A stretch of 64,000 bases of DNA from contig JAXGQI010000007.1 of the NCBI GenBank assembly GCA_040766525.1, positions 3,166 through 67,165 of the forward strand, written 5' to 3'. How positions within the stretch are numbered: position 1 is the first letter of the stretch; each line of letters starts with the position of its first letter. The notes beneath the pieces are model-generated. The model was not told where the DNA came from, did no database searches, and worked only from the letters and a program-made list of their open reading frames with translations. This stretch comes from Clostridiales bacterium (GTDB taxonomy: Bacteria > Bacillota > Dehalobacteriia > UBA7702). Below are positions 43,438-43,633 of the stretch, in pieces. The position numbers were made by a program, and so were the translations under genes.

Positions 43438-43633
43438 AGAGGAGGGTTGCCCCTCCTCCGAGACTGCAGACAAAAGCCGATAGCGTTGTCAAACCAAAGC
43501 CCCTGACCGCTTCCGTATGTTTAGATACGCTGCGCGTCCAGGGCCTTTGCTTTTCCTAGCTCTAGGCCTTTGTCTTGTGTCTCCCATCTTGTCGACTTTG
43601 TCGACAATCTGAGAGGAGGGTTGCCCCTCCTCC
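43438..43633 (+). repeat. palindromic repeat family, copy D (152-bp core 43460-43611) bracketed by a 22-24-bp duplicated hairpin
   Basis: AGAGGAGGGTTGCCCCTCCTCC occurs at 43438-43459 and again at 43612-43633. The core is GAGACTGCAGAC...GTCGACAATCTG. Confidence 0.9.

Follow-up and report, generated by a model that had tools for sequence, protein, structure and literature searches.

In this study, we focus on a 64,000-nucleotide (nt) stretch of DNA from an uncultured Clostridia-like member of the Bacillota (Clostridiales bacterium, GenBank assembly GCA_040766525.1, contig JAXGQI010000007.1, positions 3,166 to 67,165 of the forward strand), referred to below, in its full length, as the window, and on a short palindromic element that recurs in its intergenic regions. 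The reference copy, designated copy F, is intact, occupies 152 nt on the + strand (43460-43611) near a SIR2 deacylase gene, and is enclosed by two identical hairpins. A first-pass annotation of the window had regarded the element as an undescribed type that duplicates whole terminator hairpins at its insertion sites. The present analysis leads to a different classification: with a probability of about 0.85, the element is a transposase-less miniature transposable element with inverted repeats (MITE) of an insertion sequence (IS) of the IS1182 family, similar to ISBma2 and ISCbo5, which is presumably moved in trans and duplicates its target hairpins.

Copy F begins with a left terminal inverted repeat of IS1182 type (43460-43478, + strand; GAGACTGCAGACAAAAGCC), followed on the same strand by an 86-nt core hairpin (43479-43564) with the conserved segments ATAGC, GACCGC, CGCGTCC, and GCTCT, by an internal inverted copy of the left repeat (43565-43583; GGCCTTTGTCTTGTGTCTC) that pairs with 43460-43478 in the predicted fold, and by the right end (43584-43611), which consists of CCATC, the mini-hairpin TTGTCGAC-TTT-GTCGACAA, and TCTG. 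The last part of the right end constitutes the right terminal inverted repeat (43596-43611, + strand), whose reverse complement, CAGATTGTCGACAAAG, matches the inverted repeat of ISBma2. The ends of the element can thus be written as GAGACTGCAGACAAAAG (left) and GTCGACAATCTG (right), and their outermost ~16 nt form imperfect terminal inverted repeats, GAGACTGCAGACAAAAG on the left and, as reverse complement, CAGATTGTCGACAAAG on the right. The element and its flanks fold with a z score of -6.9. The GAGAC/GTCTC pairing noticed earlier does exist; however, its two arms are not the terminal repeats of the element but the left repeat and its internal inverted self-copy. Both this pairing and AGACAAAAGCC/GGCCTTTGTCT represent a left-end layout in which an inverted repeat is followed by an inverted copy of itself, and the 86-nt core occupies the loop position of such an IS-type left-end hairpin. 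As had been proposed, the 152-nt element holds no gene, only spurious overlapping open reading frames (ORFs) being found in it.

All nine copies or fragments reported by the first-pass annotation were recovered by a combination of BLAST with the core, window self-comparison, and a covariance model. They are 82-95% identical, their density in this genome is ~1 per 8 kilobases (kb), and every one of them lies on the + strand, which, according to GC skew, is the leading strand throughout the window. Three of these copies carry a duplicated hairpin. At copy F, the left target hairpin (43438-43461, + strand; AGAGGAGGGTTGCCCCTCCTCCGA; DNA folding energy -8.6 kcal/mol) recurs as the right target hairpin (43612-43635, + strand) with a 24/24 match, just as first described; the last 2 nt of the left hairpin overlap the first 2 nt of the element, and the boundary is ambiguous at this point. 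Copy H (61265-61416, + strand; intact and 89.5% identical to F) is preceded by a terminator hairpin of 30 nt (61235-61264, + strand) that aligns, with 3 differences, to a hairpin of 31 nt on its right (61417-61447, + strand), the latter at the orthologous terminator position of an amidase gene; the alignment score of these flanks is 21, as compared with a shuffle maximum of 13. Copy A (7796-7947, + strand; 82% identical to F, with the GAGA of its left tip replaced) has on its left a hairpin with a T-tract (7762-7801, + strand) that overlaps the degenerate left tip, and on its right a hairpin with a T-tract (7948-7982, + strand) followed by a ~13-nt remnant resembling the left inverted repeat. 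The flanks of this copy align over 46 nt with 85% identity (7764-7809 with 7949-7990, BLAST).

Local alignment of left against right flanks gave scores of 21-24 for copies A, F, and H, whereas the best score among 100 shuffles was 13. Each duplicated piece can be folded into a hairpin (DNA energies between -6.4 and -13.8 kcal/mol); the pieces from the three sites have no primary sequence in common and differ in length, with 24/24 nt duplicated at 43.5 kb, ~31 nt at 61.3 kb, and 35 nt or more at 7.8 kb. The earlier observation that the duplication varies in length while spanning a complete GC-rich stem-loop each time is thus borne out, and these are real target duplications. The broader claim, hairpin duplication at the insertion sites in general, is borne out by copies A, F, and H only (three of nine copies), although all three intact, unrearranged copies of the main type carry a flanking hairpin duplication that abuts both tips. 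Because complete stem-loops are duplicated without any shared primary sequence, the target is recognized by its structure, and the reasoning that led the first-pass annotation to structure-directed joining was sound.

The junctions follow a common geometry. Intact 3' ends, which read ...CAATCTG (CAAGATG in copy I, described below), always abut the 5' base of a hairpin, with the right junction 0-1 nt before the stem and the left junction 1-8 nt beyond it. Copy F is antisense to both neighbouring genes, and its junction geometry is unchanged, which indicates that the target is a DNA structure rather than a terminated transcript; a link of insertion to the RNA 3' end or terminator was ruled out on the same grounds.

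The corresponding empty sites were found in relatives that belong to a different species or genus rather than to sister strains. The closest of them (loci L050/L051) is syntenic with the window, its IleS being 88% identical, and no copy of the element occurs in 34 kb of this synteny. At the F site in L050, between the VanW and SIR2 genes, there is a single hairpin, AGAGGAGGCGGCGCCTCCTCT, as opposed to the two copies that flank the element in the window, and a single orthologous hairpin is also present at the F site of a more distant relative (L001). At the H site of L050/L051, between the amidase and DUF421 genes, one terminator is present and the element is absent; downstream of the right-hand H hairpin, the sequence is conserved between the window and L050/L051. 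A single hairpin at the empty sites implies that the duplications were made on insertion and are true target duplications. A comparison with empty sites had been proposed by the first-pass annotation.

The termini of the element point to its family. ISBma2, an IS1182-family element of Burkholderia mallei, has the inverted repeats CAGATTGCTGACAAACCC and GGGTTCGTCAGCAGTCTG (Song et al. 2010, PMC2877748); in the form CAGATTGCTGACAAAC / CAGACTGCTGACGAAC, these resemble the tips of the present element, and a T/C difference between the two ends is common to both. When the window was scanned with the ISBma2 consensus, with up to 3 mismatches allowed, four of the five hits fell exactly at element termini and pointed inward; the left tip of copy F, for instance, differs from the consensus CAGAYTGCTGACRAAC at 3 positions and lies exactly at the tip, pointing inward. 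The similarity is even closer to an IS1182-family IS on the Bacillus sp. S3 plasmid NZ_CP039728.1 (L053, 357-1922), which starts with CAGACTGTAGACAAATCCCCCATTTTTGGGGGATTTGCCTACAGT and ends with ...TTTTGTCGACAATCTG: the right end of the element, TTTGTCGACAATCTG, is identical to the right end of this IS over 15/15 nt, and the left end matches its left end, CAGACTGTAGACAAA, at 13/15 nt. The ends of ISEfa7 and ISCbo5 are also similar, ISCbo5 ending in ...ACAATCTG. A blastn search of the element against plasmids returned only short chance hits, two of which were inspected and neither of which represented IS ends.

Two of these full-length elements also share the target behaviour. On either side of the Bacillus sp. 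S3 IS lies the same hairpin, AGAGCACTTCAAGTGCTCT, a perfect duplication of 19 nt. ISCbo5, in the copy on the Clostridium botulinum plasmid p3BKT015925 (NC_015418.1), has an ORF that matches the NCBIfam IS1182 family transposase (E = 2e-141), starts with CAGGCTGTTGATAAAC-ATAA-TTTGTCAACAGAC, ends with ...GAACAATCTG, and is flanked by a 30-nt duplication that covers most of a terminator hairpin, its right tip abutting the 5' base of the target stem; insertion of ISCbo5 at terminator hairpins has been reported previously (PMC3098183). In both the Bacillus IS and ISCbo5, the inverted repeat at the left end is followed by its own inverted copy, so that they share with the MITE the left-end hairpin layout as well as the position of the right tip at the 5' base of the target hairpin. 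However, both are ~1.6 kb long and encode a transposase, and the apex of their left-end hairpin is a loop of 4-6 nt, where the MITE has its 86-nt core. For ISBma2, target duplications of 18-26 base pairs (bp) have been described that consist of whole hairpins of variable length, such as the perfect hairpin AATGGGCCGGAAACGGCCCATT (PMC2877748). Long, variable duplications, each a complete GC-rich hairpin, are common to ISBma2 and the present element, those of ISBma2 being flanked by A and T runs. The two differ in that ISBma2 is a full-length proteobacterial IS with a transposase gene, whereas the element is 152 nt long, has no gene, resides in an uncultured Clostridia-like Bacillota, contains the extra 86-nt core, and gives rise to duplications that are longer, at 24 to at least 35 nt.

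Taken together, tips that match IS1182-family inverted repeats and hairpin duplications typical of the family assign the element to the ISBma2/ISCbo5 branch as a MITE. The view that it is an undescribed type is not sustained, since its termini match IS1182-family inverted repeats and hairpin duplications have been published for ISBma2. The first-pass annotation had named a core belonging to a known MITE family with ordinary target duplications as an observation against its proposal; the family has been found, although the duplications are not ordinary but family-typical. Landing at hairpins and duplicating them whole is a known, little-studied behaviour of the IS1182 family, whose transposition mechanism was given as 'Unknown' in a 2018 review (PMC6199540).

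A scheme for the movement of the element can be outlined on this basis. An IS1182-family transposase would bind both tips and move the MITE in trans, the MITE having retained its two terminal inverted repeats along with a left-end hairpin of IS type; the enzyme responsible is presumably a DDE transposase of this family encoded elsewhere in the genome. Integration takes place, as with the full-length relatives, at GC-rich palindromes, mostly intrinsic terminators, without primary-sequence preference, and would proceed through two strand transfers on opposite sides of the palindrome, in which the right tip, ...ACAATCTG, would join the 5' base of the stem and the left tip would join a position 1-8 nt past its 3' base. 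Gap repair would then duplicate the whole stem-loop, so that the length of the duplication (24, ~31, and at least 35 nt) would track that of the hairpin. A likely reason is that extrusion of the palindrome, whether into a cruciform or, in single-stranded DNA at the fork, into a hairpin, brings its flanks together; an ordinary short stagger in space would in this way become a long stagger along the duplex.

Among known systems, IS1272 and TnSha1 of staphylococci resemble the element in that terminator hairpins are targeted without primary-sequence specificity (PMC4923244 for IS1272, PMC5678879). However, part of the hairpin is deleted by IS1272, and no duplication results. Classical MITEs differ in having duplications that are short and fixed (e.g., TA) or none. 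Similarities to Correia/NEMIS, ERIC, RUP, bcr1, and REPIN elements are found in size (100-200 nt), the absence of an ORF, the single long imperfect hairpin, the intergenic and multi-copy distribution, and their role as landing pads for IS elements. REPINs, in contrast, are moved by an HUH (RAYT) enzyme without duplication, and HUH elements such as IS200/IS605 and REP-RAYT are not known to duplicate their target at all. An IS200/IS605 derivative (PATE) or a REP/REPIN, which would be expected to insert 3' of a fixed tetra- or pentanucleotide without duplicating it, was accordingly rejected as an identity for the element, given the presence of long duplications and left flanks without a common motif.

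Target choice by structure and a formal resemblance to repeat duplication by Cas1 had suggested to the first-pass annotation a comparison with Cas1 and casposons, and an integrase of the Cas1/casposase-like, HUH, or recombinase type could in principle insert the element at hairpins. Casposon target duplications have a fixed short length, whereas those described here range from 24 to at least 35 nt; moreover, the tips belong to a DDE family, and neither Cas1 nor any other integrase of these types was present among the annotated proteins of the window, a survey that was not exhaustive. Insertion by such an integrase is hardly credible, and the comparison with Cas1 is not upheld.

Several observations weigh against assignment to an IS1182-family MITE. 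No IS1182-family transposase is encoded within the 64-kb window, where the transposases are of the IS3 and ISL3 families. The 86-nt core was not found in seven full-length IS1182-family elements (L038, L052-L057), and because it is absent from these IS and homologous to tip-less repeats elsewhere, the element does not appear to have arisen from a known IS by simple deletion. A duplication could be assessed at three copies only, none was seen at the C-type copies described below, and one of the three, copy A, is irregular in that it lacks the canonical GAGA tip and its duplication extends into the left inverted repeat by ~13 nt (CTGCGGGCAA vs CTTAGGGCAA). Finally, all nine copies share one orientation, unlike the family at large, which has no general orientation bias (PMC3971601). 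The shared orientation, at ~7 independent loci, is suggestive only, but it could mean that the targeted hairpins lie on one replication strand.

The last two of these observations could also be explained by spread without any transposase, in which a polymerase stalled at a single-stranded terminator hairpin would switch template to the element and back, thereby copying the hairpin a second time. Such a process would account for the common direction of all nine copies relative to the leading strand, for duplications that are long, variable, and centred on hairpins, and for the overlap of the copy A duplication with the element end, as a homology-guided switch would give. The junctions of copies F and H, on the other hand, are exact at tips that match inverted repeats recognized by DDE-family transposases and offer a microhomology of 2 nt at most, and an identical junction geometry is found at full-length IS elements that carry a transposase. 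We consider template switching very unlikely for these reasons and retain the IS1182-family MITE as the preferred identity. Two other candidates within the window were rejected: the ISL3-family transposase gene (874-2055, - strand; Pfam DDE_Tnp_ISL3, E = 9e-71) is of the wrong family to be the partner of the element, and the IS3 elements, which have TG...CA ends of their own and are located inside the loop, were dismissed as the parent of the repeat.

The copies without a matching duplication are rearranged, truncated, or of a variant type, and all of them lie on the + strand. Copy B consists of a 5' part (20298-20347), which starts 6 nt past a stop codon and has no hairpin on its left, an IS3-family insertion sequence in its apical loop (20348-21658, + strand; NCBIfam IS3 family transposase, E = 1e-87), and a 3' part (21659-21751), whose CAATCTG end adjoins a hairpin (21752-21775), so that a hairpin is present on the right side only. 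The absence of a matching 3-bp duplication at the MITE/IS3 junction suggests that copy B is a chimera. Copy I is organized similarly, its 5' part (62331-62393) directly following a terminator hairpin (62301-62328), a second IS3-family insertion sequence occupying the same apical-loop position (62394-63732, + strand) with GTT on both sides, and its 3' part (63733-63825) adjoining a different hairpin (63826-63852). The hairpin on its left is orthologous to the terminator of the DUF421 gene in L050, its right flank is not orthologous to L050, and the copy is probably chimeric as a result of IS-IS recombination. Since the IS3 insertion site is a conserved loop, every insertion of this kind would leave the same 3-nt duplication, and recombination between two IS elements would therefore yield chimeric elements that look intact. 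The two loop-inserted IS3 elements have identical ends of ~43 nt, while their OrfB proteins are only 33% identical; their insertion at the same apical-loop position of the MITE recalls the IS3-family element IS1397, which lands in the loops of REP sequences (PMC1525189).

The variant or C-type copy (21778-21988, ~210 nt) has a longer 3' tail, a right tip reading ...CTTTTGTCTACAG, and compensatory changes in its core, and it is flanked, like copy I, by two different hairpins (21752-21775 and 21989-22019). The last 60 nt of another C-type copy form the 3'-end fragment at 48433-48492, which is 87% identical to 21926-21985 and has a hairpin (48326-48371) upstream. Copy D (36814-36950) has its 3' end replaced after position 137, and its flanks cannot be evaluated because that end is lost; a 12-mer from the C-type 3' tail, GTCATCCTGTAG, occurs in inverted orientation at the broken 3' end of this copy (36944-36985). 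The remaining fragment is a degenerate 3' half of the MITE (42576-42642) that follows the right-end remnant of an IS3 element (42499-42586), beside the truncated SIR2 deacylase gene. Mismatched or single hairpins would, in the proposed scheme, have arisen when copies, or the IS3 elements inserted in their loops, recombined with one another at a later stage. The same explanation has been published for ISBma2, many copies of which likewise lack matching duplicates after recombination (65.6% of copies have lost them, and one listed example has two different hairpins; PMC2877748).

The 86-nt core has a distribution of its own. A gapped family motif common to both subfamilies of the window, ATAGC-N20-GACCGC-N18-26-CGCGYCC-N17-21-GCTCT, matches 5 window copies and 27 loci in a genome collection, ~24 of which were judged real by inspection, as compared with 1-2 loci expected by chance according to a rough estimate. 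These loci belong to metagenome-assembled genomes (MAGs) of gut Clostridia and to Verrucomicrobiota (Puniceicoccaceae, Opitutales, and Ca. Merdousia), and the core homologues among them (loci L008, L010, L011, L013, and L015-L034) are multi-copy hairpin repeats. The exact core pattern, which matches 6/6 window copies, was found at no locus in the genome collection and at 6 loci in metagenomes, all of them chance matches of 21-29 nt, and the family motif was found at no locus in viral contigs. In an alignment of 21 sequences, the core forms one long hairpin with conserved internal loops and compensatory changes at 18 of 28 pairs, and a covariance model built on it detected further copies with scores that are strongly strand-specific. 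The relatives in Clostridia and Verrucomicrobiota have no IS1182-type tips at their ends and no flanking hairpin duplication; they are nested between short terminator-like arms, and their start coincides exactly with the upstream gene's stop codon. A 25-27-nt apparent duplication at a Ca. Limadaptatus locus (L016) was dismissed after strain comparison, which showed it to be probably a repeated 3' tail module.

Some of these features would be expected if the repeat served chiefly as a structured module with a function at the RNA or DNA level, for example as a stabilizer in the 3'-untranslated region, a terminator, or a protein-binding site, and if the hairpin duplications were local tandem events unrelated to its spread. 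Covariation of the core across two phyla (18/28 pairs), the start of its relatives at upstream stop codons, the retention of a core-type repeat by two genera at one orthologous locus (L008 and L025), and the strand-specific model scores are all in line with such a role. However, covariation of the arms is also expected in a palindromic mobile element without RNA function, and a search of Rfam 15 gave no match at the gathering score for the window and 10 related loci, and only chance-level matches for the element at E values up to 10. The lack of a copy in the syntenic region of the closest relative implies that the window copies are recent insertions, and duplications that abut IS-type tips are signatures of transposition. 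A mainly functional module is thus quite unlikely as an account of the window copies, for which the IS1182-family MITE remains preferred.

What the core itself represents is a separate matter. As the IS elements lack it and tip-less homologues exist elsewhere, the MITE of the window looks, from sequence comparison, as if IS1182 ends enclosed a module with an independent existence in other genomes. That the 86-nt core, written as ATAGC-N20-GACCGC-N22-CGCGYCC-N19-GCTCT, is an independent, undescribed structured module is a tentative proposal, which we regard as possible but doubtful. Such a module could have a function as RNA or DNA, or it could be mobile in its own right, inserting into hairpin loops and having been captured by the ends of an IS1182-type element. 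If true, the capture reading makes the MITE a chimera of two kinds of hairpin-associated elements. The occurrence of the core in two phyla is a lead in itself, towards a repeat or RNA family that has not been described.

Further repeats were observed in other genomes. In Ca. Limadaptatus strains (L045-L048, 2524-2980), a second core-type element is variably present downstream of the GAPDH gene, and the copy number of a ~25-nt module, CGAAATATCGCGGTCTTACCCGTTC, varies between strains. At ~2521-2640 in L039-L044, a locus that is also downstream of GAPDH, metagenome assemblies of a gut Clostridia species differ in the number of REP-like units (CCCCAC-variable loop-GCGGGG), of which 1, 2, or 3 are present in tandem.

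The surroundings of the element in the window contain several disrupted genes. The SIR2 deacylase gene (42774-43391, - strand) encodes 205 amino acids (aa) as compared with 245 aa in L050, the ABC-F gene (58888-60415, + strand) is split into two ORFs as compared with a single 504-aa gene in L050, and the ORF of a P-type ATPase (32033-33700, + strand) stops at 555 aa; all three are probable pseudogenes. Together with the load of IS elements and MITEs, these pseudogenes suggest either that the genome is undergoing an IS bloom or that the assembly contains errors. An Avs2-like anti-phage NTPase (37609-39930, + strand; NCBIfam, E = 2e-93) is encoded within the 36-44-kb region, in a stretch of low GC content (0.39-0.43 vs 0.48 for the whole window). 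The block that comprises the SIR2, VanW, sigma54 regulator, and MttB genes (~42.7-48.3 kb) is inverted relative to IleS in comparison with L050 (138-7270), and MITE and IS3 remnants (42.5-42.6 kb) lie near one edge of this inverted block.

For the IS1182 family, the finding extends hairpin targeting and hairpin duplication to a 152-nt non-autonomous derivative. With its two ~16-nt tips and subterminal hairpins, this MITE represents a minimal natural substrate, which could serve in studies of how the structure of DNA, rather than its sequence, is read by a DDE transposase. In genome annotation, tandem identical terminators around a palindromic repeat of this kind are to be understood as IS1182-type target duplications, and neither as regulatory tandem terminators nor as the sign of a new integrase.

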